NCBI GenBank assembly: GCA_007135125.1
Contig: SLJK01000057.1
Span: 3,612-67,611 of the forward strand
Direction: 5' to 3'
DNA length: 64,000 nt
From: Syntrophomonadaceae bacterium
GTDB lineage: Bacteria > Bacillota > Dethiobacteria > DTU022 > UBA8154
Shown: piece after piece, positions 35,007 through 57,147 of the stretch
Numbering within the stretch: the first letter of the stretch is position 1
How the letters are laid out: the number at the start of each line of letters is the position of its first letter
Program-made: the position numbers and the translations under genes
Notes under the pieces: generated by a model
Databases searched by the model: none
What the model was told of the DNA's origin: nothing
Seen by the model: only the letters and a program-made list of their open reading frames with translations

Positions 35007-35041
35007 AAGCCCTGGGAACCTATTTCCCAGGGCTTTATTTA
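35007..35041 (+). terminator. Rho-independent terminator
   Basis: AAAGCCCTGGGA / TCCCAGGGCTTT hairpin followed by a T-run. Confidence 0.85.
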
Positions 35042-35228: not shown

Positions 35229-35972
35229 ATGGACCATTTTATCGTCCCTTTATTGAACTTATTTAGAGCAGCGGAAAGTGGAATTGTCCTTTCGGCCCAG
35301 GCTGAAGATCCGGGTGTTATTAGGGAAACAATCAATTACATTGCCCGGCGTATTGACTTAATCGGGGAGTTGATGCTTGAGCACCTCTGGTTGGTTATTA
35401 TAGCAATTGTCATAGCTGTTGTAGTATCAGTTGTAGTGGGCATAATTATCAGTTATTACGAGAGAAGTGCTCAGGCGGTGCTGTGGCTTTGCCAGATCTT
35501 GATGGTCATACCCAGTCTGGCTATGCTGGCATTTATGGTGCCTTTATTCGGGATTGGCTTTACGACCGGGGTGGTTGCCTTGATTCTTTACAGCCTGCTG
35601 CCGGTTGTTCGTAATACTTATACCGGCATCAGAGAGCTTAGCCCAGCAATTGTTGAGGCGGCTAAAGGTATGGGAATGACCGAATGGCGCATCTTGACCA
35701 AGATTAAAATACCACTGGCCACGCCCGTGATTATGGCCGGCATACGAACTGCAACTGTAATGGTTGTTGGTATTGCTGCGATTGCCGCCTACGTTGGTGC
35801 AGGTGGCTTGGGAGAGCTTATTTTCCAGGGTATTTCGAGAAGTAACGAACCGATGATTATTGTTGGTGCAATCGGCGTTTCCATTATCGCGCTTGCCTTC
35901 GACTTTCTTTTACATTGGGGCGAAAAACACTTTGCCGCAAAAGGCAAGCCAGGGGAGGTAACGGAAGAATGA
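35229..35972 (+). CDS. Osmoprotectant (glycine betaine/choline/carnitine, OpuC-type) ABC transporter permease
   Basis: ABC TM type-1 permease with an EAA-like loop. Operon with a CBS-ATPase, a second permease and an SBP. Confidence 0.8.
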   Translation: MDHFIVPLLNLFRAAESGIVLSAQAEDPGVIRETINYIARRIDLIGELMLEHLWLVIIAIVIAVVVSVVVGIIISYYERSAQAVLWLCQILMVIPSLAMLAFMVPLFGIGFTTGVVALILYSLLPVVRNTYTGIRELSPAIVEAAKGMGMTEWRILTKIKIPLATPVIMAGIRTATVMVVGIAAIAAYVGAGGLGELIFQGISRSNEPMIIVGAIGVSIIALAFDFLLHWGEKHFAAKGKPGEVTEE

Positions 35973-37081
35973 TTAAACTGGAAGGAATATCAAAAATATT
36001 TCCGGGACAAAAACATCACGCCGTAAAAAATTTAAATCTTGAGATAAACAAGGGAGATGTTTGTGTCTTGGTAGGCCCTTCTGGATGTGGCAAGACTACA
36101 ACCATGAAAATGATCAACCGTCTTTATGAACCCACCGAGGGGAAAATCTTTATCGGAGGTGAGGATGCGCTTAATAAGGATCTAATTAAGCTGCGCCTCG
36201 ATATCGGCTACGTTATCCAGGAAATTGGGCTATTTCCGCACATGACTATTGAACAAAATATAGCCACTGTTCCTAATGAAAAACACTGGCCTAAAGAAAA
36301 AACAAAAGAGAAGGTAGAAGAAGTGATGAACCTGGTCGGCCTTGATCCGAAAATTTTTAAGGATCGTTATCCTGCGGCTTTGAGTGGGGGGCAGCGGCAG
36401 CGGGTCGGAGTGGCCCGGGCAATGGTTGCTGATCCGCCGATTATGTTGATGGACGAACCATTCGGAGCGGTTGATCCGATTACTCGCGCCCGCTTGCAAA
36501 ATGAGTTTTTACGAATTCAGGAAGGCATGGAGAAAACGATTGTTTTTGTTACCCACGATATTGACGAAGCGATAAAGATGAGCGAAACAATTGTAGTAAT
36601 GAGGGAAGGTGAAATCGTTCAACATGCCACTCCAAGCGACCTTTTAAGTGCCCCTGCCGATGAGTTCGTCTCCAACCTGGTCGGCCGCAACCGTTCAATC
36701 AAACGTTTGCACCTGATCCGGATCCACGAGATTTTAGAAGAGCTGGGAAGGGTGAAACCGATTCCCGAGGATACGAAAACAGATGAAATCAAAAAGCGTT
36801 TAGATGAGAGTGCTACAAGGACAGTTATGGTTGTTGATAGCGATAATAAGTTGAAAGGGGTCATCGGGGTAAACGATCTGAAGCAAAAAACCGGTGAAGT
36901 GGCTGCCGATTATTACCAAGATGTCATGGAGACAATAACCAACGATGCTACTTTAAACGATGCTCTCTCGGTCATGCTTGAATGCGGAGAGGGTTATGTT
37001 GCTGTCGTTAATGAAAACAACCAGTACGAGGGAACAATAACCCTGGGCGACCTGCTCAACGTGGTTAAGGAGGATAGCTAA
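35969..37081 (+). CDS. Osmoprotectant ABC transporter ATP-binding protein with C-terminal CBS domains
   Basis: Walker A GPSGCGKTT, LSGGQRQRV signature, C-terminal CBS pair. ATG 35969 after GGGGAGG. Confidence 0.85.
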   Translation: MIKLEGISKIFPGQKHHAVKNLNLEINKGDVCVLVGPSGCGKTTTMKMINRLYEPTEGKIFIGGEDALNKDLIKLRLDIGYVIQEIGLFPHMTIEQNIATVPNEKHWPKEKTKEKVEEVMNLVGLDPKIFKDRYPAALSGGQRQRVGVARAMVADPPIMLMDEPFGAVDPITRARLQNEFLRIQEGMEKTIVFVTHDIDEAIKMSETIVVMREGEIVQHATPSDLLSAPADEFVSNLVGRNRSIKRLHLIRIHEILEELGRVKPIPEDTKTDEIKKRLDESATRTVMVVDSDNKLKGVIGVNDLKQKTGEVAADYYQDVMETITNDATLNDALSVMLECGEGYVAVVNENNQYEGTITLGDLLNVVKEDS

Positions 37082-37083
37082 CA

Positions 37084-37806
37084 ATGCTCCAAAACATTTG
37101 GAAATGGCTGATTATTCCGTTGATCATGATCGGTATCGGAACAGCAATTGTTATCTATGCAGTAAACAATCCCACCGATTCTATCGTAGCGCGCATGCTT
37201 ACTTATGAAAGAATATTCAGAGTTATTCGTGAGCACATGGCCCTACTTCTTATCTCGATGCTTGCTGCTACGTTCGTTGGTGTGGCAGCGGGGATTATGC
37301 TTTCCAGACCTCGACTTTACTATGCGGGTCGAGTCGTGGAAAATATTGTTAATGTAGGGCAGACTATTCCCAGCCTGGCTATTCTGGCTCTTTTCTTCAC
37401 GATCTTGGGTCTTGGTTTCAGAACAGCAGTTTTTGCCCTGTTCCTCTATTCAATACTTCCTATTCTAAGAAACACTTTTGCCGGTATTGACGGTGTCGAT
37501 TACAGTATTATTGAAGCAGCCAGGGGGATGGGCATGAATTCTTTTCGTATTTTAACGAAGATCGAACTGCCCATTGCTTTTCCAATTATTGTTGCCGGCA
37601 TACGGACAGCTGTTGTGATTAATGTAGGGGCAGCAACTCTGGCCACTTTTATAGCTGGTGGTGGTTTAGGTGATCTTATTGTCACCGGACTTTCTGTCCA
37701 CCGGGACATGATTATCGTTACCGGGGCAACCATAGCTGCTTTGACTGCTATTTTGCTTGATTATTTAATCGGGCGCGTAGAGGAGAAAATCGTTCGTTGG
37801 TCTTGA
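37084..37806 (+). CDS. Osmoprotectant ABC transporter permease (second)
   Basis: Paralogous to 35229..35972. Confidence 0.8.
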   Translation: MLQNIWKWLIIPLIMIGIGTAIVIYAVNNPTDSIVARMLTYERIFRVIREHMALLLISMLAATFVGVAAGIMLSRPRLYYAGRVVENIVNVGQTIPSLAILALFFTILGLGFRTAVFALFLYSILPILRNTFAGIDGVDYSIIEAARGMGMNSFRILTKIELPIAFPIIVAGIRTAVVINVGAATLATFIAGGGLGDLIVTGLSVHRDMIIVTGATIAALTAILLDYLIGRVEEKIVRWS

Positions 37807-37932
37807 AATGGATAAGCCGGTTTTTGAGTAAACAACAAGGTGTAAGGAATTTGATGTCTAGGAAGATAATTAAATTACAAAGTTTGGCTGTTTTTCCAAA
37901 ATCATTATATTAAAAGAGGGGGAGATTAATTT

Positions 37933-38850
37933 ATGACTATGAAAAGGGTGTTAGTAATATCTTTAGTCTTAGTCTTTTTAGCAGGGTCGATATTTATGAC
38001 GGGATGTGCACCGGATGAGGATGTAGTTACTATCGGTTCGAAAGAGTTTACCGAACAGTTGATCCTGGGCCAGATCGCGATCCATGCCCTGGAGGATCAT
38101 GGTATTCCGACCGAAGATGAAACCGGCTTGGGTGGAACTATAGTTGCCCGTGAAGCTCTGGAAAGAGGAGACCTAGATATGTACTGGGAATACACCGGAA
38201 CTGCGCTGGTTGAATTCTTTGGTATGGACGTGATCACCGATCCGGAAGAGTCCTACGCTACAGTTTCGGAAGCAGACCTCGAAAATGATCTGATCTGGCT
38301 GGACTATACTCCGTTTAACAACACCTACACAATTATGATGCGCCAGGAGGATGCTAATGAGTGGGGCATCGAGTCAATCAGCGACCTGGCCGAGGCAATC
38401 AATGAAGGCGTGGAAGCCCCGGAACCCGGTGAATGGACTTTCGCTACCGACCATGAGTATGAAGCACGTGATGATGGGTTAGAAGAGTTACAAATACATT
38501 ACGGTTTTGAGTTTGCAGATTATGATGTAATGGACCTCGGGGTTGTTTACGGTGCTTTAAGAGAAAAAGACCACCCGGTAGCCATGGGCTTTGCAACAGA
38601 TGCCCGCATTGCCGACTACAACCTGGTTAACCTGGTTGACGATCAGGAGTTCCACCCGGTCTATAACTGTGCACCGGTAGTGCGTCAGGAAGCACTGGAT
38701 GCTCATCCCGAGATACCAGACATTCTCAATCCTATTGCTGCAGCCTTGGATGAGGAAACCATGTCATCTTTGAACATGCAGGTTGACATTGAAGGTCAAA
38801 CTCCCAGTGAAGTGGCTGAAGAATGGCTGCTTGAGCAAGGTTTTATCTAA
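37933..38850 (+). CDS. Osmoprotectant-binding lipoprotein (OpuCC/OpuBC-like SBP)
   Basis: Lipoprotein signal (LAGSIFMTGC). Glycine-betaine-binding SBP fold. Confidence 0.75.
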   Translation: MTMKRVLVISLVLVFLAGSIFMTGCAPDEDVVTIGSKEFTEQLILGQIAIHALEDHGIPTEDETGLGGTIVAREALERGDLDMYWEYTGTALVEFFGMDVITDPEESYATVSEADLENDLIWLDYTPFNNTYTIMMRQEDANEWGIESISDLAEAINEGVEAPEPGEWTFATDHEYEARDDGLEELQIHYGFEFADYDVMDLGVVYGALREKDHPVAMGFATDARIADYNLVNLVDDQEFHPVYNCAPVVRQEALDAHPEIPDILNPIAAALDEETMSSLNMQVDIEGQTPSEVAEEWLLEQGFI

Positions 38851-38923
38851 TAAAGTAAAGGCAGATTCACGCTGCCCGTTACAGTAACTCTGAGTATGAG
38901 CTATGGGAAAACAGCCAGTATCA

Positions 38924-38961
38924 AGAGGGGCGAGCAGGAGCAGTCTTGCAGCCCCTCTTTT
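38924..38961 (+). terminator. Rho-independent terminator after the SBP gene
   Basis: AGAGGGGC / GCCCCTCT stem followed by TTTT. Confidence 0.75.
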
Positions 38962-39163
38962 AATCCACGCCTAACCCTTATAAATCAAAATTTTCTGATT
39001 GTCGGTTTAAATTAAAAAGCAATGTGATTGCATTACAATTGCATTGCTTCTTTTAGTTAAAATATTGTTAATTTATCTTGCTTGATTTGAAATTTTCCAG
39101 TATAGTAGTACTTACTAAACAATATTATTAACTGTAAAATAAAGGAAGGAGGCGCATGAACCA

Positions 39164-39448
39164 ATGGATAAAGAAGCCTATCAAAAAAAACTGGAAGCTC
39201 AATTAAAAGAATGGAAAGCCGAATTGGATAAATTAAAGGCCCAAGCAGAAAAGAAAGAAGCAGAAGCAAAAATTTCTTACCAGGACAAAATCAAGGACCT
39301 GGAGGCACAGTACCAAAAAATCAACGAAGAACTAAAAGGTCTTAAAGAGACAAGTTCTGAAACTTGGGAAGGTGTTAAAAAAGAGCTGGATAAAGGAACG
39401 GATGAGTTTAAGAAACAATTACAAGAAATATACTCTAAATTTAAATAA
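39164..39448 (+). CDS. Small coiled-coil protein (hypothetical)
   Basis: 94-aa K/E-rich heptad protein. RBS GGAAGGAGG. Followed by a terminator. Confidence 0.5.
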   Translation: MDKEAYQKKLEAQLKEWKAELDKLKAQAEKKEAEAKISYQDKIKDLEAQYQKINEELKGLKETSSETWEGVKKELDKGTDEFKKQLQEIYSKFK

Positions 39449-39463
39449 GTTATAATTAACGTA

Positions 39464-39500
39464 AAAAGCGAGAACTTGCAGTGCAGGGTTCTCGCTTTTT
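39464..39500 (+). terminator. Rho-independent terminator
   Basis: AGCGAGAAC / GTTCTCGCT stem followed by TTTTT. Confidence 0.8.
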
Positions 39501-39576
39501 ACGTTATTCATTTATAATTGATTTTGCCACAGGTAGCTGTATATATCAGCGGCCACATAAAAACAGGGAGGCAAAA

Positions 39577-39982
39577 ATGAGTGAACTGGTGACCATAAAA
39601 AATGACCTGTGGCAGTTTGCTGAACCGGAGAAAGCGAAAATATTGCAGCGCTTTTTTAAAGCTATCCCCGGCGGCTACGGGGAAGGGGACCGGTTCATAG
39701 GGGTTAAAGTGCCGTTCCAAAGGAAAATAGCCGGGAAATACTATAAAATAATCCCCCCGGAAGAAACAGCAAAATTGCTCCGGGACCCTTTTCATGAGTG
39801 TCGACTTACGGCACTGTTTATCCTTTGCCTGCAGTTTGAAAAAGGAGTCATTTTATCAAAAACCAGCAGCATATGCTTTTTTGCAAAAACATTATCGTAC
39901 GATGCCCCGCACTATGCTCCGTTATGCCATCGAAAAATTTGATCCCCGGTTAAGAAAGTTGTTTTTAAATGGAGAGATCTGA
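39577..39982 (+). pseudogene. DNA alkylation repair enzyme (AlkC/AlkD HEAT-like family) remnant, internally deleted and frameshifted
   Basis: N-terminal ~85 aa (ILQRFFKAIPGGYGEGDRFIGVKVPFQRKIAGKY) in one frame and a C-terminal-like piece (RYAIEKFDPRLRKLFLNGEI) in another. Total far shorter than the ~230-aa family. Confidence 0.55.
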
Positions 39983-40141
39983 TTCATCCAGGACCACATT
40001 TCCAAGCAAAAAAGCCCTTTCAAAAATGTTGGAAAAGTAATATGATGTTGAAAGGAAAACTGGAAGAAGGTTCAAGCTACAAGCATCTATAGTTTTGGTA
40101 CAGCGAGAAATCAAAAAACTGCAGTATGACCGCCTAGGAAG

Positions 40142-40879
40142 ATGGCTGGGAGGGGTTTGCTCTTTATCCCGCAGCGAGAGGAGAGCTGGGAATTGCCTAC
40201 AATTGTGCTCATTATTTTAATCATTATAATCTTTGCAGTTGTCTTGCTTGCGGGATTGCTCTTTATCCCTTTCAGATATAAAATTACGGGCAATTTTCGG
40301 GGAAGCAGTCTGGTTGCCAAATTACATCTAAAAGCGTTCGGATGTTTGGGTTTAAGCCTCCTCTACAAGGAAGATACATGGATGCTACATTTTTCAGTAT
40401 TTCAGGCTACTCTACCCTTTGTCTTCCCTTGGCAAAGAAAAGGGAAACTGAAAGAGAAAGGAGGAGAAGGAGACAAAGAAAAAGGGAAGTTTTCGTTCCA
40501 GGAATTCGTGAGGTATGCAAGGCACATAGCAGACCGGGAAATGCTGGCAGGGTTCTGGGATTTAGTCAAAAATCTGTTCAGGATATTTAAAATCCACTCC
40601 TTTAAAATCCAGGGTAAGGTGGGGTTTTATGAGCCTCATCTTACCGGGCAGCTGGCCGCCTTTCTTTACAGCGTAAAAAGTGCCTACCGGAATTACAGTT
40701 CAGATTTAGAACTGGTTTGGGATGAAGAAGTTTTGGACCTGGAAGTAAAAGCCGAAGGAAAATTCCTTTTTGCCGCTGTAATTTTCTACCTCCTACGCTT
40801 TTTGCTGTCCAAAAATACCCGTAGGGTTTGGAAAAAAATAAAAAAGGGAAAAAAGGCATCCCGGCTGGCAACTATATAA
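40142..40879 (+). CDS. DUF2953/YtfI-like sporulation membrane protein
   Basis: N-terminal TM segment. Lies upstream of a YtfJ/GerW-family gene, as ytfI-ytfJ does in Bacillus. Confidence 0.5.
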   Translation: MAGRGLLFIPQREESWELPTIVLIILIIIIFAVVLLAGLLFIPFRYKITGNFRGSSLVAKLHLKAFGCLGLSLLYKEDTWMLHFSVFQATLPFVFPWQRKGKLKEKGGEGDKEKGKFSFQEFVRYARHIADREMLAGFWDLVKNLFRIFKIHSFKIQGKVGFYEPHLTGQLAAFLYSVKSAYRNYSSDLELVWDEEVLDLEVKAEGKFLFAAVIFYLLRFLLSKNTRRVWKKIKKGKKASRLATI

Positions 40880-40938
40880 ACGTTCCAGGGGTATAGAAAA
40901 TTGAAAGTAAAAAATACCGAAAAACGGAGGGTAAACAG

Positions 40939-41301
40939 ATGGATACAGGCAGAAATATGATGGATTCAATGTTTGAAAAGCTGGATAAATTCCTGCGCAC
41001 AGAAACAGTGGTAGGAGAACCCATGCAGGTGGGTGAAATCACCATTATTCCTATTATTACCGTATCTTTTGGGGTGGGCGGAGGCGAAGGTGAAGGGAAG
41101 GACAAAGAAGGAAATGACGGAAAGGGGGCCGGTGGAGGATTAGGGTGCCGCATTTCTCCTACTGCCATGCTTATTATTAAGGAGGGGGAAGTAAGTGCAA
41201 TTCCTCTTGGTGTCAAAGGATCCCTGGAAAGAATAATGGAAATGGTCCCCGAGATCATCTCCAATATTAACATCGGCAAAAAATCATCCGGTAAAGAATA
41301 G
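40939..41301 (+). CDS. ytfJ: YtfJ/GerW-family sporulation protein
   Basis: VVGEPMQVGEITIIPIITVSFGVGGGEG...GGGLG glycine-rich core characteristic of Spore_YtfJ. Confidence 0.75.
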   Translation: MDTGRNMMDSMFEKLDKFLRTETVVGEPMQVGEITIIPIITVSFGVGGGEGEGKDKEGNDGKGAGGGLGCRISPTAMLIIKEGEVSAIPLGVKGSLERIMEMVPEIISNINIGKKSSGKE

Positions 41302-41631
41302 TTTAAAAGAAAGCCCTGTACGGGAACCTTCGGATACTAACAGTAAATTTAATTAAAAAGTTCAAGGCAGACGTTTGAAAAGAAAAAGCGAAAGTTTCCT
41401 CCCTGGAAGACAACACAGCTAGAACCGTTGCAGGCTGTTTTGTCTTCCATACGTTTTTAATATCTCCATAAAGAAAATAACTTTGTGGCAGATGGGCGGC
41501 TCTCTTGGTTCTACAATACATATAGTGCCACCGGAATAACAAAAATAACTTGAGGTATTATTATTTATCGGCACCTTCTACTAATCTATAAAAATGCTGT
41601 TATGGAGTTTACTTTTTAAGGATGTGAAAGA

Positions 41632-42696
41632 ATGAAAAATCAAAATATAGAAGCAAACATTGAGAATGCGTTTAGAGAGCAGATAAAAAAAGATCCCAAA
41701 GTAAAAAACGCATATTTACTGGTTCATTCAGAAAGTGCAGATATCCATATCAGCCTCGCAGAAGGCGCAACGGGCAATATACCGGCTCACCCGGAGCAAC
41801 CCAACTATATGGCCAGCGTGGGGAAGCTGTTTACCGCAACTTTGATTGGCATTCTCTTCGAAGAAGGAAAGTTAGCTTATAATGACCGTATTACCGCTTA
41901 TTTAGATGAAGAACTGACCAAGAACCTCCATGTTTACAAAGGAAAAAATTATACTGATGAGATTAAAATTAAGCACCTGTTAAGCCAAACCTCAGGTCTG
42001 TATGACAATTTTTGGCCGCTTCTGAAGAAGCTCATTAACGAGACCGATTTTAACATGGGTCCCCGGGAAGCCATCACTTGGGCTAAAAACAATTTAAAAC
42101 CCCATTTTCCTCCAGGCAAAGGTTTTAAATACTCTGACACCAATTATCACCTCTTGGGTTTAATTATTGAAAACATCACAGGAAAGCCCTTTCATGAAGT
42201 GCTGGCACAATATATTTTCAAGCCCCTAAGGATGAAGCACTCATACATGCTGAATTATTCCGAGCCGGCTGAAGCCAGCCCTTATCCTATGGCAGAATTC
42301 TACCATAAAGGCATCAAGGGTAATGACCTTAAAGGTTATGCCGGTATTGACTATGCCGGGGGTGGGGTAGTGGCTACCACTGAAGACCTGTTGAAATTCA
42401 TGAAAGCTTTAGTGAAATATCATTTGGTGACTAAAGAAACCCTGGAAATAATGAAGAACGACCGAGCAAAATACGGCCTGGGAATTGATTATGGATACGG
42501 AATTTGGCAATTCAAGACAATACCCTTGTTAATGCCGAAGAAACTTAATTCATGGGGAGTAGCGGGTGTAACGGGTGCTTTTATGTTTTATCACCCGGCA
42601 AAGGATACCTATCTTATCGGGAATTTTAATGATACCTCTTATGCGAGTAAGGGCCTAAGGTTTATGTTGTTGAAAGTGATCAAAAAGTTGTTTTAA
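41632..42696 (+). CDS. Serine hydrolase, beta-lactamase/PBP-like (class C type)
   Basis: SVGK (SxxK) nucleophile motif near the N-terminus. YxN-like region. 354 aa. Confidence 0.7.
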   Translation: MKNQNIEANIENAFREQIKKDPKVKNAYLLVHSESADIHISLAEGATGNIPAHPEQPNYMASVGKLFTATLIGILFEEGKLAYNDRITAYLDEELTKNLHVYKGKNYTDEIKIKHLLSQTSGLYDNFWPLLKKLINETDFNMGPREAITWAKNNLKPHFPPGKGFKYSDTNYHLLGLIIENITGKPFHEVLAQYIFKPLRMKHSYMLNYSEPAEASPYPMAEFYHKGIKGNDLKGYAGIDYAGGGVVATTEDLLKFMKALVKYHLVTKETLEIMKNDRAKYGLGIDYGYGIWQFKTIPLLMPKKLNSWGVAGVTGAFMFYHPAKDTYLIGNFNDTSYASKGLRFMLLKVIKKLF

Positions 42697-42825
42697 GAGC
42701 AACTATGGCCTTGAGCAAGCCTAACTTGCTTCTACTAATCCATACTACTGGCTGATTTTACCTATTTGAGATAGTTAGTAACTTGCTGCTATAATAATCG
42801 AGGGTCAGACTCTAGCAGAGGAAAT

Positions 42826-43710
42826 TTATGAGATAATCCCCTTATTATCCGGCAGAAATTTGATAATATGTCGGCGAAGATGTTTATAGGAGAGCGCCCC
42901 GGTGGTATGTCCTCTACTAATTGTTACCACGGGGCGGCTTCCATAAGATGCCTTCTGCAGCTCATACCGTATTATCTGATCAAAGCGAGCTAAGAGAGGG
43001 AATACATTGCTGTCCTCTCCAGCTTTAAACTCCTCTTCAAAATTTAACACCGGACCTATTGCTGCAGAGTTTTCTATAGCATGTTTTGCTACTGCCCTGC
43101 TGTAAATAGAATTTAAGAAAACATCGTCCATAGCTGTTCCGGCTAGCAAGGGAGTATAGAAATCAGCGCTGTTGAAGTGTATATGGTGCAGATTAGTGAT
43201 AAAACCGCCCAGGCTTGTACCAGCGACCAGGACTTGGCCTGTGCTATGCATCTTGTTGTATTGCACTAACTGCTCGATAAGACGGACAGAGACGGCAAGC
43301 ATCGCCACGAAATTAGCTAAAGTGCGGATCCCTTGCTGAAATTCTTTCATCGAACCGTGAAAAGGCGCCCGCACCAGAAATAAATTGAGAGGTATATTCC
43401 CTCTTTTTAGAGAAAAAATCCTTCTAAAACCATAGTCAAAAGGAATCTCGCTGGCACCGTGATGGTAAATGATAGAAGAACAACTTTTACCCTTCCACTG
43501 CGCCAGTCGGAAAGCTGCCTGCAGTTCTCCTACCAGCGTACCAGCAGAGAGTTCATAGTCTCCTTCACCTGTGATCTCCGGCAGTACAAGGCTTACATCC
43601 TGCAGATGCTCAGCAAATCCTTGAGAATGGATACTATCACGAAAATATTTAGGCATAAATTTTGCGCCCAAGCCCAGTGCTACCTTGTCTATTAACCCGT
43701 GGATGTTCAT
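42826..43710 (-). CDS. Alpha/beta-hydrolase (esterase/lipase-like)
   Basis: GTSLGG nucleophile elbow (GxSxG). 294 aa. Confidence 0.6.
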   Translation of the reverse strand: MNIHGLIDKVALGLGAKFMPKYFRDSIHSQGFAEHLQDVSLVLPEITGEGDYELSAGTLVGELQAAFRLAQWKGKSCSSIIYHHGASEIPFDYGFRRIFSLKRGNIPLNLFLVRAPFHGSMKEFQQGIRTLANFVAMLAVSVRLIEQLVQYNKMHSTGQVLVAGTSLGGFITNLHHIHFNSADFYTPLLAGTAMDDVFLNSIYSRAVAKHAIENSAAIGPVLNFEEEFKAGEDSNVFPLLARFDQIIRYELQKASYGSRPVVTISRGHTTGALSYKHLRRHIIKFLPDNKGIIS

Positions 43711-43955
43711 GAATGATGTATAAACTCCTTTAATTGAGGGTTTTTTATATTGTTATTATAATTATAGCTTATATTTACCGAAAAGAATGATTATCCATCT
43801 ATTTTTTTACAAAGTTTTTCAGGTATTATCTTTTGGGGTCTCTTGCCGGTGCGGTAGAGGGCAGAGGTGGTCAGGGACCGGGACCACTTCGACGCATCCC
43901 AAGTGCAACTCCGGGGGTATGTTCCCTTGTTCCTTGTCCCTTCTGCATGATGATA

Positions 43956-43984
43956 TTGACGGGTTTTGCCCGCAATGGTAAGAT
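43956..43984 (+). promoter_or_regulatory. Sigma-70-type promoter positioned to give a leaderless drrA-like transcript
   Basis: TTGACG, 17-nt spacer, TAAGAT. The -10 ends 6 nt before ATG 43991. Confidence 0.45.
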
Positions 43985-43990
43985 AAAATC

Positions 43991-44989
43991 ATGTCAAAAA
44001 GGATGCCTGGCTCTCAAACAGAACTTGCCGTGGAAACTCGTGCGCTGGTCAAAGTTTTTGGGCAAAACCGAGCAGTGGACGGGGTGGATCTGGAGATGCC
44101 CTGCGGCACCGTCTACGGTCTGTTGGGCCCTAACGGCGCCGGCAAAACCACCACCATACGCATGCTGTCCACCCTGCTGCAGCCAGATGGCGGCACCGCC
44201 CGGGTACTGGGTTATGACGTGGTACGCCAGGCAGACGCAGTGCGCAGCCGCATGAGCCTTACCGGGCAGTTTGCCTCGGCAGACGAAGATCTCACCGGTC
44301 AGGAAAACCTGGTGATGTTGGCCAGGTTGTGGGGTTTTTCCCGCATGCAGGCACGTTCACGGGCGGAAGAACTGCTGCACGCTTTTCATCTGGAGGATGC
44401 AGCCCGGCGCCAGGTAAAAAACTACTCCGGGGGGATGCGGCGGCGCCTTGATATTGCCGCCAGCATTATCATTACCCCGGAACTGCTTTTCCTGGATGAG
44501 CCCACTGCCGGCCTGGATCCTCGCAGTCGCAACCAGGTATGGAGTATTGTTCGTGCCCTGTTGGCAGAGGGTACTACGGTGTTGCTCACCACCCAATACC
44601 TGGAGGAGGCCGACCAACTCTGCGAAAGGATTGCCGTCATAGACCGGGGCAGGGTCATCGCCGAAGGTACCGGCGGTGAGCTCAAGGAGTCGGTAGGAAA
44701 GGGGACTCTGCTGGTGCGGCTGCGCCGGCCCGAACATCGGCCACGGGCTCAAGAGATTCTGCAGAGAGTTTTGAGCGATGTGACGCTGCACCAGTTGCTC
44801 GACCCTGCAGCGCTCTCGGCCCGCCTTAATCACACGGAGCGGGTGGCGGAAGCCCTGGCGGCATTGCAGCAGGCCGGTATCGCTGTAACTGAGTTTTCCC
44901 TGGGAAGGCCCAGCCTGGACGAGGTTTTTCTGGCGCTGACAGGACAGCCGGCAGAGGAGAAGACTACCGAAGGGGAGATTAACCATTGA
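43991..44989 (+). CDS. ABC transporter ATP-binding protein, DrrA/ABC-2 exporter type; >60% GC
   Basis: Walker [10 protein letters not shown], signature YSGGMRRRL, Walker B LLFLDEPT. Confidence 0.85.
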
Positions 44990-45834
44990 TAGAAACCCGG
45001 CAGACCACAGTACCGGTGCCGCAGGATATTCAGGAAGATCTGCAGTCCGCCCTTTTTTTGAGCACCCGCCCTCCTCGGCCCAGTCCCCTGGCTTCTTCTA
45101 TGGTTTTTGGATGGAGGGCGCTGCTGAAGATAAAATACGTCCCCGAGCAGATGTTTGATGTGACCATCTTCCCGGTCATGTTCACCCTTATGTTTACCTA
45201 TTTATTCGGCGGAGCCCTCGCCGGATCCACCAGTGATTACCTGCAGTTTCTTCTGCCGGGGATCCTGGTGCAGACGGTGGTGTTCCTCACTGTTTATACC
45301 GGCTTCGGGTTGAACACCGACATCACCAAGGGGATCTTCGACCGGGTACGTACCCTGCCTATCTGGCGTCCATCCGCTCTGGTAGGCGCTTTGCTGGGTG
45401 ATGCCATGCGTTACACTATCGCATCAATTATAGTGATAGGACTGGGGCTGTTGCTGGGATACCGCCCTCCTGGTGGCCCCGCCGGAGTACTGCTGGCTGT
45501 ATTGCTAATGCTGACCTTTGCCTTCAGCATGTCCTGGATCTGGACCATGCTGGGGCTAATCCTGCGAACACCCAACTCGGTCATGGGAGTAAGCATGACC
45601 ATCCTTTTCCCCCTGACCTTTGCCAGCAACATCTTTGTAGATCCGCAAACCATGCCCCCGTGGCTGGCATCTTTTGTTGACGTTAACCCTATCACCATCC
45701 TGGTGACTGCCATGCGGGGCCTTATTAACGGCAACGCCGCCGGCAGCGAAATTCTCCTGGCCCTGCTGGTGTCAGGCGGATTCCTCGCCATTTTCGCTCC
45801 TTTAACCATGCACTTCTACCACCATAAGAAATAG
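44986..45834 (+). CDS. ABC-2 family transporter permease (DrrB-like); high GC
   Basis: 6-TM ABC-2 permease. 4-nt overlap with the ATPase gene. Confidence 0.75.
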
Positions 45835-45839
45835 TGCCA

Positions 45840-46940
45840 TCATCTGCATAAATGCTTCCCCGAAGACCGCCGCACCTTTCCCTCTTGCGTTTGTTTTTTT
45901 ATCTCGATTATTTCCCGGTTAAATTTTTCAGTTTCTCCCAAAAAAGGGGTGTGGGCCGAATTATTGAATATTATTAACTCCTTTTGAGGGGCTTCCAGTT
46001 TCTCATAATATTCTTCTACCAGCCGGAGCGGGGTATTGTAGTCGTTATTGCCGACCAAAAAGAAAACAGGGACTTCCAGGTCGGGGATATGTTCCGGAAA
46101 ATTAACGCCGAGCATCTCCCCTTCCGGGTGCAAGGAAGCTCCTCCGCGGTTCATACCGTCCAGTAAGCGGTAGTAGTCCATAAATGTATATTCATCTGCC
46201 CGGAAGGATATAAAAGCCAATCGCCACATCTCTTTGTCAAAGTTTCCTCCATAGGAGCTTACCAGTTGGGCAAACTCCTTGTAGTCACTGTGTTTGTAAG
46301 GGGGCACACCTATTTCCCCTAACCGGTTCAAGCTGTCTTTATCCTTTCGTTTTTCTATTTCTTCTTCCAGCCACTCGTAAGCTATCTCAAGCTGCCTCCG
46401 GCTCTCCACTAACTGGCTTACCCCGATATAGGCGTGGAAATGCTCGGGATATTCAGCCGCCAGCTCCGTTCCCAGGTGTGTTCCCCAGGAATGGCCCAGC
46501 AGATATATTTTTTCCGTTTGCTGACGCTCTTTTAAATACTCTACCAGGTCCAGCGCATCGCTCTTAAACTGCTCGAAAGTCATGGTTTCTTCTTTAAAGC
46601 CTCGGTGGTTTGACTTGCCCGCCCCGCGCTGGTCCCAGTGCACCACCACAAACTCCTCTTCCAGATCTTCGTCTATGTGGTGCGACAATGACATCTGGGC
46701 AGCCCCGGGACCTCCGTGCAGCCATAAAAGGACCGGGTTGGAGACGTCTCTGCCGCGGATAGAGATCCACTGCTTCAAGTTACCTAGTTCTACCTCTTCC
46801 AGGGCTGCAATACTACCTGGCAATATGTTACCTTCTGCGTCTTTAAACTGCCTGGTGGAGGGGGTGACTCCCAGGCAAAGAACAGCGGCAAGAATTAATC
46901 CAGCCAAAGCGGCAGCTGAAAAGATCATAAATTTCTTCAA
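45840..46940 (-). CDS. Secreted alpha/beta-hydrolase, proline-iminopeptidase-like
   Basis: GHSWGT nucleophile elbow. Signal peptide MKKFMIFSAAALAGL if the TTG at 46940 is used. The ORF track extends it to 47009. Confidence 0.6.
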   Translation of the reverse strand: MKKFMIFSAAALAGLILAAVLCLGVTPSTRQFKDAEGNILPGSIAALEEVELGNLKQWISIRGRDVSNPVLLWLHGGPGAAQMSLSHHIDEDLEEEFVVVHWDQRGAGKSNHRGFKEETMTFEQFKSDALDLVEYLKERQQTEKIYLLGHSWGTHLGTELAAEYPEHFHAYIGVSQLVESRRQLEIAYEWLEEEIEKRKDKDSLNRLGEIGVPPYKHSDYKEFAQLVSSYGGNFDKEMWRLAFISFRADEYTFMDYYRLLDGMNRGGASLHPEGEMLGVNFPEHIPDLEVPVFFLVGNNDYNTPLRLVEEYYEKLEAPQKELIIFNNSAHTPFLGETEKFNREIIEIKKQTQEGKVRRSSGKHLCR

Positions 46941-47215
46941 TAGTTCTTTCCTCCCGCATTTTATGAATGTAAGAGAGAAATTCAAAAAAAGGCGGTTTAA
47001 TTTTAACATAAATCAACCCTTTTGCGTGCTCACCTTTGTAATTATCCTGGCAGGGTCCCCGGAAAAAGGGTTTGTACTAAATATCAATAATAAATATTGC
47101 GAAGCTTGTCTGCTTCATGGGAAAAACTGTCTTTCTATGTGCGCCCATTGCGATGTGCTTGGGAAAGGCTTATAATGAGTATAATTTTTACATATTCAAG
47201 GAGGGTAGATTATAA

Positions 47216-47413
47216 ATGGGAGATTTGAAATATTTATTCTTTGGTGCCGGTGTTTTGGGAAGTGTGTACGCTGCCAAACTGCACGAGGCCGGTGTTGATG
47301 TAACGGTTGTTGCCCGCGACAAAAGATTTGCGGATATTAAAGAACATGGTATCGTGCTGGAGCAGTTTAAAACGGTGAATGATGTATGTTGTAATAATTT
47401 TGCCCCGGTATAA
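47216..47413 (+). pseudogene. 2-dehydropantoate 2-reductase (PanE/ApbA) N-terminal fragment
   Basis: GAGVLGSVYAAKL Rossmann motif. Only about 55 aa of a ~300-aa family, ending inside the tRNA-Pro promoter. Confidence 0.55.
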
Positions 47414-47442
47414 TTGACTTTGCCACGGGCAGCTGTTATAAT
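47414..47442 (+). promoter_or_regulatory. Consensus sigma-A promoter of tRNA-Pro
   Basis: TTGACT, 17 nt, TATAAT, about 11 nt upstream of the mature tRNA 5' end. Confidence 0.7.
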
Positions 47443-47453
47443 ATCACTAACTA

Positions 47454-47530
47454 CGGGGCGTGGCGCAGTTTGGTAGCGCGCTTGACTGGGGGTCAAGAGG
47501 TCGCAGGTTCAAATCCTGTCGCTCCGACCA
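47454..47530 (+). tRNA. tRNA-Pro (anticodon GGG), CCA encoded
   Basis: Manual fold. Acceptor CGGGGCG/CGCUCCG. D-arm GCGC..GCGC. Anticodon stem CUUGA/UCAAG with loop CUGGGGG. T-arm GCAGG-UUCAAAU-CCUGU. 3' ACCA. Confidence 0.85.
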
Positions 47531-47601
47531 TAATATATGGGGCTTTTCAAACTTCTGAATTATACTCAGAAGTCCCTGAAAGGCCCTTTTGACATTAATT
47601 A

Positions 47602-47865
47602 ATGAGGTTTTATTCTATTGTAAATAGTAGTACCCAAGATAATGAGAAAACCTATAAACAATTGATGGAATGGCGCCAGGTAAAAATTGATGATATTAGA
47701 TTTAGCAAAAAACAAATGTGGCGATCAATATATTTTACTGTTCCTGTAATTGCTGCACTGATTGGTTTATATGTCTCAAGTGAGACAATAAGAAATGCAG
47801 ACACAGTAATCCAAATGAAATATATTTTTTTGTCATTTTCATTGATTGTTTCTGCTAACCCATAA
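47602..47865 (+). CDS. Hypothetical small membrane protein in an AT-rich tRNA-adjacent segment
   Basis: 87-aa ORF with one TM segment. About 30% GC context. Confidence 0.3.
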
Positions 47866-48042
47866 TGTATAAAAGCTGAATGGATGAATTTCGGCCGATA
47901 AAAAATAGCCCCTTAAAATAAAAGGTAATAATAACAGTTCAATAGTAAAGCAAACGGAAAAACATAACCCAAACAAGCAGGAAATACCGGCCTTTCTGAA
48001 GAATTTTGTGAATTAACAGAATAAAGGAGGTTTGAGATCTCC

Positions 48043-48610
48043 ATGACTGATTTTTATATGGAAGAGCTGCCTTACTTTGAAACAATAGCCTTGGAAATGG
48101 GAGTGCAAAAGGCAAAGATCATTGACACTAACACCATTTATTTAGGTGAATGGGCAATCTGGAAGTGTCGTTATGGTTGTCCCATGTATGCCAGGGATGC
48201 CTGCCATCAACCAGAGGCCCCCGGGATTGTGGAGATGCAAAGGATGCTCAGTGGCTACCATAAGGCACTGCTTATTAATGGTTATGAGGGTCCGGAGCTT
48301 TCCCGCATTGCTTTAAAACTGGAACATGAAGCATATAAACAGGGGTATTATAAAGCCTTTGCCCTGATTGCCCTTCCTTTTAGCAAAGGGTCTACCTGAA
48401 ACCCTGCCGAACCAGGGACTCAGGCTGGGTCCAAAGAGGCGGGGAATGAAGAAGGACGGCAGCAGGCAAAAATAACAGAGATACGGCCTATGATGGAAGC
48501 CTGTGGTATCGATGTATTTAAAACCGCCAGGCTTAACGGTTTCCAAATTTCAACACGCGAAGAGACTTACGCTACTTGGAATTACTTTGCCCTGGTTTTG
48601 CTAACATAAC
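48043..48610 (+). pseudogene. DUF2284-like predicted metal-binding protein interrupted by a single in-frame TGA at 48397
   Basis: The same frame is open 5' (118 aa, CRYGCPMYARDAC) and 3' (MMEACGIDVF...) of the TGA, giving ~188 aa if read through. Confidence 0.5.
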
Positions 48611-49137
48611 AAATACAAAAGGCAGGGGTGATTTGAGCTATCTTTTTCATCTCTGCAATCTCCCCTGCGAGTTCTATCATCTCTTTTTTCCAGCTATCCA
48701 AGGTCCTCTGTCACGAAAACACATCCCTTATGAAAGTTTTCTACCTCTACTTAGATTTATTTATATAAAACAAATGAAGCACCCTTGCCAAGAAGATAGC
48801 TCCAGGGATAACCAACAGAAAGAAAATAAGATATTCCATAAGTGCAGCTCCAGACTTATTTGCTCTTTTTCTTTAAATTTCTCCAGCAACACCTAGGGAG
48901 GGAGTATTAGTGAGTCTTTCTGACTTAACTACTACATTACGTGCCCATACCATCTTCCGAATAATTTTATATAGCCGAGGCAGCACAATTTTCTCGAAGA
49001 GCTGGAATCTCATAATACCAAAGGTTAACTCTATTCAGGGAATGGCTAGCACTCGACAGAAAAGTTGGCATCCGGGCGAGGGACCAGCGTGAATCGACCA
49101 AAATGGATCAATTTTTATCGGGCTAATTGCCCGTCAT

Positions 49138-49473
49138 TTATCCTTTAGGCGCATACCTAAAGGCCGCATATTCGATGATCACCCCATAGGCGATGCCGGC
49201 GAGGAAGCCCACTAAATCGTGAAACCCGGTGGAGCTGTAAAAGGCCAGGGAGACCAGCAAGCCCAGGAACCCGCCGCGTGTGAGCGCTTGCGGCAGCGCT
49301 TTCGTCCTGCCGGCCAGCCCAATGACCAGGCCCATAAGAAGCCGGTTGTACCAGAAGGCAAACAGGTAAAAGGCTTCCTCTTCAAATCCTGACCTGACCT
49401 GAGCGCCCAAGATACAGATCACGCCCAAGATAGCCCCTGCGGCTAGCGAGACCTTCATTCGTTTTGTCAACAA
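49138..49473 (-). CDS. Hypothetical membrane protein (GC-rich, possibly fragmentary)
   Basis: 111 aa, three hydrophobic segments, about 58% GC. Confidence 0.35.
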   Translation of the reverse strand: MLTKRMKVSLAAGAILGVICILGAQVRSGFEEEAFYLFAFWYNRLLMGLVIGLAGRTKALPQALTRGGFLGLLVSLAFYSSTGFHDLVGFLAGIAYGVIIEYAAFRYAPKG

Positions 49474-49537
49474 ATTATGATTCCTCCTCCTCCTTGCAGT
49501 TTCTTGATGAGACGGATAAATGACTTGTCAAAGTTCT

Positions 49538-49804
49538 CTAAAATCCCCGTGTCTGCCCCTGCCAAGGCGGGTCTTTTTTTACCTGGAATTCTTGTACCCC
49601 GGGGCCTCCCAGGTGGCGCAACCGCCAGATCCCGTAGAGATAACTGAGGATCAAAACCGGGATGGTCACCGGCCAGCCCAGCAGGGTGTTTGCCCAGCCC
49701 AGCCGGAAGGCATCCCCCTGCTGAAAGATGATGATTTGTACACCCAAACGCATCAGAAAAAAGGAAGCCCAAAACCAGGTCACCTCTCGATAGGCTGGTT
49801 TCAC
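49538..49804 (-). CDS. Hypothetical membrane protein (GC-rich, possibly the 5' part of one disrupted gene with 49138..49473)
   Basis: 88 aa, two hydrophobic segments. Same strand and GC as its neighbour. Confidence 0.3.
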   Translation of the reverse strand: MKPAYREVTWFWASFFLMRLGVQIIIFQQGDAFRLGWANTLLGWPVTIPVLILSYLYGIWRLRHLGGPGVQEFQVKKDPPWQGQTRGF

Positions 49805-50045
49805 ATCTAATTATTTGCTGCTGGTTATGTATTTTTTCCTTTCTTTATCTTACACTGAAAACAGTGGAATATCAATTGCGAACTTCATTGCATGCGAGAT
49901 AAACCGCAAACAACATTATCCACGGTCCCCAGGGTTGACCCATGCAGGGGATTTTGGAAATAGTTGTTTTCACTCCTGCAAAATTTTATGCTAAAATAAA
50001 AAATAAGGGCCTGATTGAAATAAAAAGCCGGCCGAAAGGGGAAAA

Positions 50046-50750
50046 ATGTTTAAAACACTTTTATTCGATCTGGACGGAACGCTCCTGTCCCTGGACAGGG
50101 ATGAATTTATCAACCGTTACCTGGAAAGCGTTGCCTCTTATTTTGCTCATCTATGTGAACCGGCCGTTTTTATAAAAGTATTGCTGCAGAGCACCCAGGC
50201 GATGATGATGAACAAAAAACCGGATAAGACCAATGAAGAAGTGTTCTGGGATGATTTTATCCGGCGTATGGGTCGGTCCCGGGCAGAACTACTACCCCTC
50301 TTTACAGATTACTACTTCCATAATTTCCCTGCACTGCAGCGTTATACTCGTCCTGAGCCAATAGTCCGTCAGATGGTGGAAGCGGTATTTGCACAAAATA
50401 AAGAGGTCGTTATCGCCACTAACCCAGTATTTCCGGAAACAGCCATCCGGCACCGCTTGAAGTGGGCCGGGATTGATCACCTGCCTTTTCGCCTGGTCAC
50501 AACCTACGAAAACACCCACTTTTGTAAACCGTATCCCGAATACTATGCAGAAATTCTCAGGGAACTGGATCGTGATCCCCGGGAATGTATAATGATTGGG
50601 AATGACACCCGCGAAGACCTGGCCGCGGCACATTTAGGCATTGCCACTTACCTGGTAAAAAACAACCTGATCATGGATGACGGAGATTCTTACTTTGCTG
50701 ATTACGAAGGCTACCTGGAGGATCTGCACCAGTTTATCTGTAGTTTTTAG
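50046..50750 (+). CDS. HAD-superfamily hydrolase
   Basis: Motif I LFDLDGTL and motif IV GNDTREDL. Confidence 0.8.
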   Translation: MFKTLLFDLDGTLLSLDRDEFINRYLESVASYFAHLCEPAVFIKVLLQSTQAMMMNKKPDKTNEEVFWDDFIRRMGRSRAELLPLFTDYYFHNFPALQRYTRPEPIVRQMVEAVFAQNKEVVIATNPVFPETAIRHRLKWAGIDHLPFRLVTTYENTHFCKPYPEYYAEILRELDRDPRECIMIGNDTREDLAAAHLGIATYLVKNNLIMDDGDSYFADYEGYLEDLHQFICSF

Positions 50751-50837
50751 CTTCCCTGTATGGCCGGCAAGAATTAGTGTTGCAAAAGTTGAAGATAAAT
50801 TAAAATAGATATGTAGGAAAAGCCCGATGAAAAGCAC

Positions 50838-52442
50838 TTAATGTTTGCCCAGCACTATCTGTGACAGTTTGTTAGCATGATCAGCAACCTTTTTCAGATT
50901 ACTCAATATATCGAGGCAGTTCACACCTACATCTGGCAAACACTCCTGCTGTTTTATCCGGTTAATAAGATTCTGGCGCAAATTATCTTTCAACTCATCC
51001 ACTTCATTATCCATTTTTACCACTTCTTTTGCCAGTTCTTTGTTTTCATCTGAAAAGGCCCTGATGGCTTTTTCGAACATTTCGTCTACCTTTTCGTAAA
51101 GGGAGTAAACTTCGTTCACGGTTGTGTTGCTTGACTCTATCTTTTTGTCAAGGGTCGCCTCCGCTAATTCAAGTATATTTTGGGAATAGTCCCCAATACG
51201 TTCCAGATTATTGGCAGCGCTCATCAGTCCGGATATGGTCGTTGACTGTTGAAGCGTAAGAGACTGCTGAGAGAGGTTTTGCATGTAAAGATAGATTGAC
51301 TCCTCCAAACCATCTATCAGTTCTTTCTTCTGGTTTATGTGGGCGATTTTTTTCCTGTCGCCGTAGTAAAAAAAATCTATCGATTCTCTCACCATTTCCC
51401 TGGCAATATTTGCCATGCGAAAAAGTTCCTGTCTGGTAGCTTGAATGCCGGCGACAGGGGTTCTCAGCACCTTTTTATCCAGGTACTTTGGGCCGAACTC
51501 AAGGCTTGTCTCTTTTCCCGGAACCGCGAATTCCACGAGACGGACAAAATATTTATAAAATGGGAAAACGAGCACCGTATTCATAATGTTAAAAAAGCTG
51601 TGGGCGTTAGCCGTTTGACGTGCCACAGTGTCTCCCATTTGCAAAACCAGGCTTGTAAAAGGCCCAATAATAAGCAGGACAATCCCAACTCCAAGCAGGT
51701 TAAAAATAATATGGGCCATGGCAGTTCTTCGTGCTGCCAGGGAGGTTCCCAAACCTGCTATCAGCACCGTTATGCTGGTACCCACGTTAACCCCCAAAAT
51801 AAGCGGTATTGCTGCTTCCAGCGTGATTAGATCCTGCAGCGTAAGCGCTATAATAACTCCTGTGGCACCTGTGCTGCTTTGAATGGCAGCAGTGAATATC
51901 GCTGAACTAAGTACTCCTAGCAATGGATTCTCGGCAAAACCTACCAGTAAATCTAAAAATAAGGTGCTTTCCCGCAGAGAATACATGGCTTCCGACATGG
52001 TGCTCATGCCCAGGAAAAGCAGACCAAATCCCAAAATAGATTGGCCCAGATATTGATAAAACCTCTTTTGCGCAATAAAATTGAGCAGGGCTCCTATGCC
52101 GATGGCTGGAAGGGCTAAATAATCAAGCTCGAATGAAATTATCTGCGCAGTAACGGTAGTCCCGATATTGGCTCCCATAATGGCACCCATGGCCTGTGAA
52201 AGGTTCATTAGACCGGTGTTAACTAAGCCCACTAACATTATGGTGGTAGTACTGCTGCTCTGAACAAGAACGGTTACCATTATTCCGGTCAAGACACCGA
52301 TGATAGGCTTACTGGTAAGGACCTCGATGGTGCGCTTAAGTCTGTCACCAGCCACTTTTTGCATCCCGGAAGACATTATCTGTAAACCGTATATGAAAAG
52401 ACCCAGGCCTCCCAAAAGCCCTATAATTACGAACCAGTCCAT
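50838..52442 (-). CDS. Na+/phosphate cotransporter family protein with PhoU-like C-terminal domain
   Basis: Duplicated N-terminal Na/Pi repeats (SSSTTTIM.. / SSTGATGVI..) and a C-terminal PhoU-like helical region. Confidence 0.75.
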   Translation of the reverse strand: MDWFVIIGLLGGLGLFIYGLQIMSSGMQKVAGDRLKRTIEVLTSKPIIGVLTGIMVTVLVQSSSTTTIMLVGLVNTGLMNLSQAMGAIMGANIGTTVTAQIISFELDYLALPAIGIGALLNFIAQKRFYQYLGQSILGFGLLFLGMSTMSEAMYSLRESTLFLDLLVGFAENPLLGVLSSAIFTAAIQSSTGATGVIIALTLQDLITLEAAIPLILGVNVGTSITVLIAGLGTSLAARRTAMAHIIFNLLGVGIVLLIIGPFTSLVLQMGDTVARQTANAHSFFNIMNTVLVFPFYKYFVRLVEFAVPGKETSLEFGPKYLDKKVLRTPVAGIQATRQELFRMANIAREMVRESIDFFYYGDRKKIAHINQKKELIDGLEESIYLYMQNLSQQSLTLQQSTTISGLMSAANNLERIGDYSQNILELAEATLDKKIESSNTTVNEVYSLYEKVDEMFEKAIRAFSDENKELAKEVVKMDNEVDELKDNLRQNLINRIKQQECLPDVGVNCLDILSNLKKVADHANKLSQIVLGKH

Positions 52443-57137: not shown

Positions 57138-57147
57138 GGGGTCGCAT

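Follow-up and report, generated by a model that had tools for sequence, protein, structure and literature searches.

Gene content and ancestral backbone of the tRNA-Pro locus

We analysed a window of 64,000 nucleotides (nt) from an uncultured Syntrophomonadaceae bacterium (assembly GCA_007135125.1, contig SLJK01000057.1) and, within it, the 8-kb segment (39511-47530) that ends at a tRNA-Pro(GGG) gene and is flanked by two copies of a short promoter-like sequence, here called copy 1 and copy 2. The segment follows a gene for a 94-amino acid (aa) coiled-coil protein (cc94) and comprises a remnant of the DNA-repair gene alkD, the sporulation gene pair ytfI-ytfJ, a block of about 6 kb that ends in a fragment of a 2-dehydropantoate 2-reductase gene (panE'), and tRNA-Pro with its upstream region. 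Pfam and NCBIfam searches returned the gene content between the copies that an earlier note on this DNA had described. That note had taken the segment for a mosaic cassette, bounded by the promoter copies and rearranged through recombination between them. Our comparisons make it probable, short of certain, that the 8 kb are instead a patchwork of three layers and not one element.

Exact-protein look-ups with YtfJ, cc94 and a truncated DUF2284 protein recovered metagenome-assembled genomes (MAGs) and contigs 99.8-100% identical to the window, which is a member of that population; the contigs returned by these look-ups are referred to below as same-species contigs. The records comprise GCA_007126665.1, GCA_003563065.1, GCA_003567515.1 and GCA_007122375.1 together with ENA, Logan and JGI records; the name of one JGI record (SL_1KL_011_SED) suggests soda-lake sediment as the habitat. 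All same-species contigs keep the full gene order, and an assembly artefact or MAG chimera was ruled out by the same arrangement in four NCBI MAGs and in ENA, Logan and JGI contigs. The nearest named relatives of the window proteins are Dethiobacteria and Syntrophomonadaceae MAGs. A search for homologues of YtfI revealed a sister species (P0001; 94% aa identity), represented by contigs L027-L030 (L027 from assembly ERZ27265998) at ~90-95% nt identity to the window, and comparison with this species (L027 and L028, with BLAST of L027 against the window) was the decisive one. A YtfJ scan of one representative genome per species yielded distant relatives only (at most 62% aa identity) and no useful outgroup; in these distant Bacillota relatives the ytfI-ytfJ pair was the sole syntenic part.

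Contig L027 carries cc94, an alkD remnant, ytfI, ytfJ, the tRNA-Pro promoter and tRNA-Pro in this order. Its matches to the window cover a lytic-transglycosylase-like gene (33951-34976), cc94 with its terminator (39071-39507), pieces of alkD (39615-39698, 39782-39845 and 39866-40018), ytfI and ytfJ (40176-41326, 94.9% nt identity) and, after just 34 unrelated nt, the tRNA-Pro upstream region and tRNA (47381-47530); ~830 nt unrelated to the window then precede a last match at 58383-58503 (99% identity). Since the alkD remnant and the ytfI-like and ytfJ genes (40193-40879 and 40939-41301, both +; YtfJ, PF09579) occupy the same position in the sister species, between the positions of the repeats, they are ancestral and in place. 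Together with cc94, its terminator and tRNA-Pro with its promoter they form the first layer, the ancestral backbone. In the comparison with related genomes that the earlier note had proposed as a check, the sister species shares the alkD remnant and ytfIJ and lacks the 6-kb block, panE' included. The ytfJ terminator of L027, probed for the ancestral state, folds weakly (z = +0.8) and was uninformative. Just upstream of ytfI, window 40019-40175 has no detectable similarity to L027 2165-2283, with flanks 89-95% identical; this stretch, where the ytfI promoter would be expected, is another small replacement.

The alkD remnant (39577-39982, +) is an old, decaying pseudogene, frameshifted before the split of the two species and then eroded by independent small deletions. 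It keeps its start, the N-terminal ~90 codons and the C-terminal end. The open reading frame (ORF) 39577-39942 matches PF08713 (AlkD) at profile positions 1-80 of 213, and the full-length HEAT-like repeat domain of the family is not encoded in one frame, the remainder being deleted or frameshifted. Relative to L027, the window gene has two internal deletions (~190 and ~115 nt). It also has a +1 frameshift ahead of the C-terminal MPRTMLRYAIEKF segment, which is read in the frame 39794-39982; an additional base in 'acgatg', immediately ahead of the MPRTMLRYAIEKF codons, is common to the window and L027 and is thus a shared frameshift. L027 has losses of its own (83 nt, ~27 nt and a segment with the promoter and the ribosome-binding site, RBS). 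When the window N-terminus, the L027 middle and the C-terminus read in the shifted frame are joined, the result is a 236-aa protein whose alignment to intact AlkD proteins, likewise of 236 aa, has no gaps and 73% identity. Within the species, a 352-bp deletion polymorphism (39552-39903) removes most of the remnant and spares copy 1: contigs L004 and L006 join 39551 to 39904, and L044 (MAG GCA_007122375.1) ends at 39551. The gene after copy 1 is thus broken, as the earlier note had it, and not simply truncated, its start and C-terminal end being kept and its deletions internal. Compared with deletion-biased pseudogene decay in general, alkD shows nothing unusual: after a shared frameshift, the two sister lineages each underwent several deletions of their own (27-350 bp), and a further deletion still segregates in the population, which makes it a clean small-scale example in MAGs.

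The 6-kb block between ytfJ and tRNA-Pro

The second layer is a lineage-specific block (41327-47380), absent from L027 according to BLAST and the junction sequences; L027 holds 34 nt at the site that the window lacks. The block contains orf72 (-), a beta-lactamase-like gene (41632-42696, +; PF00144), an alpha/beta hydrolase gene (42826-43710, -), drrA (44003-44989, +; above the TIGR01188 cut-off), drrB (44986-45834, +) and a second alpha/beta hydrolase gene, proline-iminopeptidase-like (45840-46940, -). GC content over drrAB is 0.56-0.61 versus ~0.42 around. The ORF of panE' (47216-47413, +), an N-terminal Rossmann fragment of 65 codons, matches PF02558 (PanE/ApbA) at positions 2-50 of 150, and the PDB PanE chains 5hws and 5ayv align to its residues 7-46. 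PanE homology extends as far as about codon 55 (nt ~47380) and stops 28 nt short of copy 2, and the last 10 codons and the stop (TAA, 47411-47413, inside copy 2) are read-through into the tRNA upstream region. The earlier note had the PanE fragment end inside copy 2, which is true of the ORF and not of the PanE homology. Homology to L027 restarts at 47381, exactly where PanE homology ends. Accordingly, the left edge of the block lies just past the ytfJ stop and the right edge at the end of PanE homology, neither of them at a repeat.

The block was probably inserted in this lineage rather than lost in the sister, because a loss in L027 must end exactly at the older panE truncation point and because L027 has 34 nt extra. 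Compositionally mixed, with drrAB at ~60% GC, it would have joined in between ytfJ and the tRNA-Pro upstream region by illegitimate, non-site-specific recombination, replacing ~34 nt, and its right edge would be a panE gene cut at about codon 55. An ancestral block lost by the sister, with no insertion in this lineage, is in our view an unlikely history, if one with some claim to attention: deletions do occur nearby in the sister (a B12-radical-SAM gene reduced to ~65 nt; the alkD promoter, RBS and two alkD pieces), but this one must have ended at the very base of the earlier panE' truncation (47380/47381), and the 34 nt of L027 mark its junction as no simple deletion derivative of the window. 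Moreover, the GC content of drrAB looks foreign, and more distant ytfIJ relatives have none of the block genes within their available flanks.

Two related promoters and their possible origin

Copy 1 (39513-39549) and copy 2 (47409-47447) are direct repeats, equally oriented and separated by 7.9 kb, which align locally at 33 of 38 columns (86.8%) with two 1-nt gaps, close to the ~34 of 38 counted in the earlier note. Their ungapped core TATAATTGAYTTTGCCACRGGYAGCTGT is identical at 25 of 28 positions and the promoter spacer at 15 of 17, with transitions as the only spacer differences; the longest uninterrupted exact block common to both is 9 nt (TATAATTGA). The likeness is confined to about -45 to +3 of the promoter, with no relation between the flanking sequences. 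In a self-comparison of the window (blastn, word size 7) the pair scored 43 and ranked sixth, the five higher-ranking pairs being an 84-nt repeat (D1, described below) and longer, lower-identity matches in or adjoining coding regions, these latter not classified individually. Maxima in 30 Markov-shuffled windows ranged from 31 to 38 and none reached 43; the similarity is real though short, and above chance. A pattern search (2 matches, 0 expected) adds nothing here and is circular, since the pattern was built from the two copies. It found no third copy in the window. A metagenome-wide scan of JGI contigs for TTGANTTTGCCACNGGNAGCTG returned copy 1 itself (L021) and six matches with unrelated flanks, and a scan of viral sequences for TTGANTTTGCCACNGGNAGCTG gave no match. 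Across the JGI metagenome contigs, the viral set and the 64-kb window, these scans give no evidence for a dispersed element.

Copy 2 (+; TTGACT-17-TATAAT with an upstream TG) is a predicted near-consensus promoter, scoring 11 of 12 in a scan by sigma-70-type criteria (hexamers near consensus, spacer of 16-18 nt). It ends 7 nt ahead of tRNA-Pro (47454-47530, +; ARAGORN; Rfam RF00005, 64.5 bits), which is identical in the sister species, and together with an AT-rich stretch it makes up the ancestral tRNA-Pro upstream region (47381-47453, +), orthologous to L027 3469-3541. Over 47381-47530 the window and L027 differ by 12 mismatches, all upstream of the tRNA and none inside it. Copy 1 (+; -35 TTGATT, spacer TTGCCACAGGTAGCTGT, eroded -10) begins 7 nt past the terminator of cc94 (gene, 39164-39448), a strong intrinsic hairpin (39457-39506, +), and lies 28 nt upstream of the alkD pseudogene start. 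The fold of 39450-39520 (-31.1 kcal/mol, z = -9.3) is listed as a terminator-like site and is kept in L027. Copy 1 is invariant across all same-species contigs, and the promoter scan does not call it because two single bases have been lost from its -10. In L027 both copy 1 and the alkD RBS are absent, the alkD start codon standing directly after the terminator without an RBS (TACGTTAT-AGA-ATGAG); as intact alkD needed an RBS, this is most simply a deletion there rather than a gain here.

As the third layer, the 38-nt repeats would be paralogous copies of one core promoter, with copy 2 the working tRNA-Pro promoter and copy 1 a copy that came to sit before alkD, in an instance of promoter reuse. 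Apart from a spacer patch described below, the two copies differ at three other sites, all transitions, and there copy 2 equals its L027 orthologue; copy 2 is accordingly the conserved promoter, orthologous to that of L027, and copy 1 is the one that has diverged. With alkD dead, copy 1 would have decayed, by these three transitions and by two 1-nt losses in the -10. We favour a history in which copy 1 arose before the two species parted, or at about that time, with a later change of the tRNA-Pro spacer and loss of copy 1 in L027, because the resemblance also includes the sequences flanking the patch (AATTGA.T, AGCTGT in register and ATATCA after the -10). The direction of copying would then be from the tRNA promoter to alkD. 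One possible route would begin with a tandem duplication placing the tRNA promoter directly before alkD and end with the first copy being lost, which resembles promoter-capture events cited in PMC3575422.

Several observations weigh against this account of the block and the promoters. Six of the 12 mismatches between the window and L027 (four of them transversions) are packed into 47421-47428, in the promoter spacer (P ~4e-5 for one 9-nt window, ~0.003 corrected), and within this patch copy 2 matches copy 1 at 8 of 9 positions; the tRNA-Pro spacer states are TTGCCACGGG in this lineage and TAACGCTGCG in the L027 type. The patch needs one extra multi-nucleotide event: either it was replaced in L027, or sequence passed between copy 1 and copy 2 within this lineage. 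For the three closest intact alkD genes (L033-L035), the DNA upstream is unlike copy 1 and the neighbours differ; being unrelated, these regions are silent on the original alkD promoter and leave the origin of copy 1 unpolarised. Nor do the relatives compared polarise insertion versus loss of the block, or show which way the promoter was copied. A search for a donor-like arrangement of the block, made via the hydrolase adjoining panE', found none; the best non-self matches of this hydrolase (78% and 74% identity) lie in unrelated contexts with no panE nearby. Furthermore, the search for additional copies in this genome covered 64 kb only, the searchable DNA of the source genome being the window.

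Quasi-palindrome (hairpin-templated) mutation was considered as the source of the L027 spacer with its perfect palindrome GCTGCGCAGC and was not adopted; by hand comparison it explains only four of the six changes, and copy 2 contains no pre-existing near-palindrome.

The spacer patch is also the point from which a different history can be argued. Copy 1 could be the native alkD promoter, from which a post-split ectopic conversion or template switch put the spacer (TTGCCACRGG) into the tRNA-Pro promoter, any remaining likeness being what two strong sigma-70-type promoters share anyway. A single event would then suffice, as the six clustered differences between copy 2 and its orthologue sit exactly where copy 2 matches copy 1, and the position of copy 1 with the alkD RBS and start codon looks ancestral. 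We nevertheless consider this history rather improbable: outside the patch the flanking motifs are unusually alike for unrelated promoters, conversion requires such homology beforehand, the copies were at least 1.9 kb apart, and the closest intact alkD genes compared provide no outgroup with a copy-1-like promoter. Taking both directions together, we propose only tentatively, and at less than even chances, that a bare tRNA core promoter of ~38 nt was copied without flanks or insertion sequence (IS) to a DNA-repair gene ~2 kb off or, in reverse, that a post-split template switch rewrote the tRNA promoter spacer. If true in either direction, this would be a natural, datable and IS-independent promoter transfer between nearby loci. 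The promoter pair with its sister orthologue is a rare case in which promoter duplication or micro-conversion can be bracketed in time, and the clustered spacer patch linking both promoters is the one point of wider interest at this locus.

Prokaryotic genomes commonly hold similar upstream sequences before unrelated genes, and putative mobile promoters have been defined by at least 80% identity over at least 50 nt of upstream sequence within the same genome (Matus-Garcia, Nijveen and van Passel 2012, PMC3575422). Like these, the two copies exceed 80% identity, precede unrelated, non-paralogous genes (the tRNA and alkD), have unlike flanks and are attached to no IS. Unlike them, the pair extends over 38 nt at 87%, under the 50-nt limit, one downstream gene is a tRNA and not a coding sequence, and copy 1 is a decayed relic rather than active rewiring.

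That the copies share no descent at all, being alike by chance between promoters or by convergence on a spacer operator of one regulator, seems quite unlikely to us. It is true that 12 of the 38 positions are constrained by the promoter hexamers and that, over the whole window, the score of 43 exceeds the shuffle maxima (up to 38) only moderately, but the nearly identical spacers with transitions only, the failure of all shuffles to reach the score, and the searches that found no other copy in the window and JGI matches with unrelated flanks besides copy 1 argue otherwise. In addition, the spacer motif is presumably not needed for tRNA-Pro expression, as the sister tRNA-Pro promoter is without it, which counts against an operator.

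The repeats are by-standers and bound no mobile unit. The indel boundaries (41327 and 47380) lie at neither copy, and neither the same-species contigs of the three look-ups nor the sister species contain a cc94-to-tRNA junction via a hybrid promoter, as a deletion between copy 1 and copy 2 would leave. For RecA-dependent recombination, perfect homology over some 25 bp or more is required, and the 9-nt exact block of the repeats is far below this. The tRNA 3' end, searched as 25 nt and as 17 nt, occurs once in the window at up to 3 mismatches; the second copy expected of an att site is not there. No integrase, recombinase or phage-like domain was detected in the ORFs scanned over 39-59 kb with Pfam, NCBIfam and PHROGs, which bears out the earlier note as to the integrase, and for the small ORFs near the tRNA, PHROGs and NCBIfam returned no matches to phage or mobile-element families. 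Because the indel boundaries lie elsewhere and recombinants, long identity, an att site and an integrase domain were not found, the repeats are not agents of rearrangement, contrary to the mechanism first suggested for them. As att-like or homologous recombination sites bounding an 8-kb cassette they would account for direct repeats that each adjoin a broken gene in a region varying between relatives, but this is highly improbable, since in addition the sister keeps the alkD remnant and ytfIJ between the repeat positions and its lack of copy 1 is a small local deletion that also took the alkD RBS.

Variable DNA and other repeats around tRNA-Pro

The evidence supports a plasticity zone around tRNA-Pro, with repeated gain and loss that left gene fragments; in this respect the tRNA-proximal hotspot of the earlier note stands, without the 8-kb segment as a unit bounded by repeats. 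On the 3' side, the match to L027 breaks off at 47530, with the final tRNA base, where one assembly contig also ends exactly, and is back at 58383. In place of the 10.9 kb of variable DNA at 47531-58382, L027 has ~830 nt of unrelated DNA (L027 3619-4447) with a 96-aa ORF without a Pfam match. According to Pfam, the variable DNA of the window holds small unknown ORFs, a truncated DUF2284 gene, HAD, Na/Pi-PhoU and GSDH genes and genes for a pyridine-nucleotide disulphide oxidoreductase and a B12-binding radical-SAM protein. As L027 retains no more than the final ~65 nt of the B12-binding radical-SAM gene (57118-58446), at least part of the 3' difference is a deletion in L027. The DUF2284 gene (48043-48399, +) covers profile positions 1-103 of 161 and is the third truncated gene near the tRNA.

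Strain L003/L048 (GCA_003563065.1, PWSW01000167.1) diverges past window position 48787, ~1.25 kb downstream of tRNA-Pro. Beyond this point it encodes a DUF6431 protein, a Mu-type transposase (rve and Mu-transpos_C), an AAA_22 ATPase and a small ORF, a domain set which we take to resemble TniA/TniB or Tn7-like transposition modules; the cluster is a mobile element in the same hotspot, absent from the window. Upstream of cc94, an opu-type glycine-betaine ABC operon of four genes (34977-39070; two permeases, an ATPase with a CBS domain and an OpuAC binding protein) is absent from L027, in which 72 unrelated nt join the flanking genes. Its presence or absence is a possible osmoadaptation difference between the sister lineages.

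The assembly itself points to variation within the population. Contigs L002, which ends at window position 47530, and L049, which starts at 47390, both from ERZ27301261, overlap by exactly 141 nt covering the copy 2 promoter and tRNA-Pro. The length of 141 is presumably the k of the assembler, given contig names with 'k141'; such an overlap implies a branch of the assembly graph, with co-existing variants that have the 141-mer in common and differ up- or downstream of it. The assembly breaks at 39551, 47530 and 47390 indicate that the population is heterogeneous at the 352-bp indel and at the tRNA; none of them speaks for exchange between the repeats.

In some respects the locus resembles integrase-mediated tRNA islands: species- or strain-specific DNA adjoins the tRNA, the 3' break falls on the last tRNA base, part of the neighbouring DNA has atypical GC content and gene fragments are present. 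Unlike in such islands, no integrase domain, duplicated tRNA 3' end or phage-like genes were found in the searches given above, and the boundaries are cut genes, typical of illegitimate recombination. Variable DNA departs from the tRNA 3' end in the downstream region only; the 8-kb segment is on the 5' side of both tRNA and promoter, a position at which such integrases do not insert. The tRNA-Pro(GGG) neighbourhood in this uncultured Bacillota lineage thus appears to have been shaped by illegitimate recombination and deletion and not by a recognisable mobile element. This is of little import beyond annotation, being ordinary genome wear around a tRNA gene, and it illustrates that variable DNA flanked by a short direct repeat has not necessarily been produced by that repeat.

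The strongest repeat of the window is the 84-nt direct repeat D1 (49960-50043 and 58479-58561, +; 97.6% identical with one 1-nt indel), which looks like a promoter with 5' leader and RBS and whose copies flank ~8.5 kb. The first copy ends 2 nt ahead of the ATG of the HAD hydrolase gene (50046). Downstream of the second copy come 120 nt without a nearby start codon and then a TrkA-N-domain gene (58683), and the position of this copy is kept in the sister species over at least the first 25 nt. This pair falls within the definition of mobile promoters (PMC3575422) and fits it better than copy 1 and copy 2 do. If the promoter transfer proposed above is true, the 84-nt pair at 49960 and 58479 would add a hint that such copying recurs in this genome.

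Elsewhere in the window, a full-length OLE (ornate large extremophilic) RNA lies at 9600-10180 (+; Rfam RF01071, 466 bits, model positions 1-616). OLE RNAs are known from Bacillota that are both anaerobic and extremophilic, and an origin of this DNA in an alkaline soda lake would agree with that. Two neighbouring, paralogous radical-SAM/SPASM genes (60327-61382 and 61513-62535) might form a peptide-maturation cluster of the kind that makes ribosomally synthesized and post-translationally modified peptides. An AT-rich segment of ~100 nt occurs before the first and again after the second of these genes (60129-60226 and 62634-62737, ~71-74% identical).

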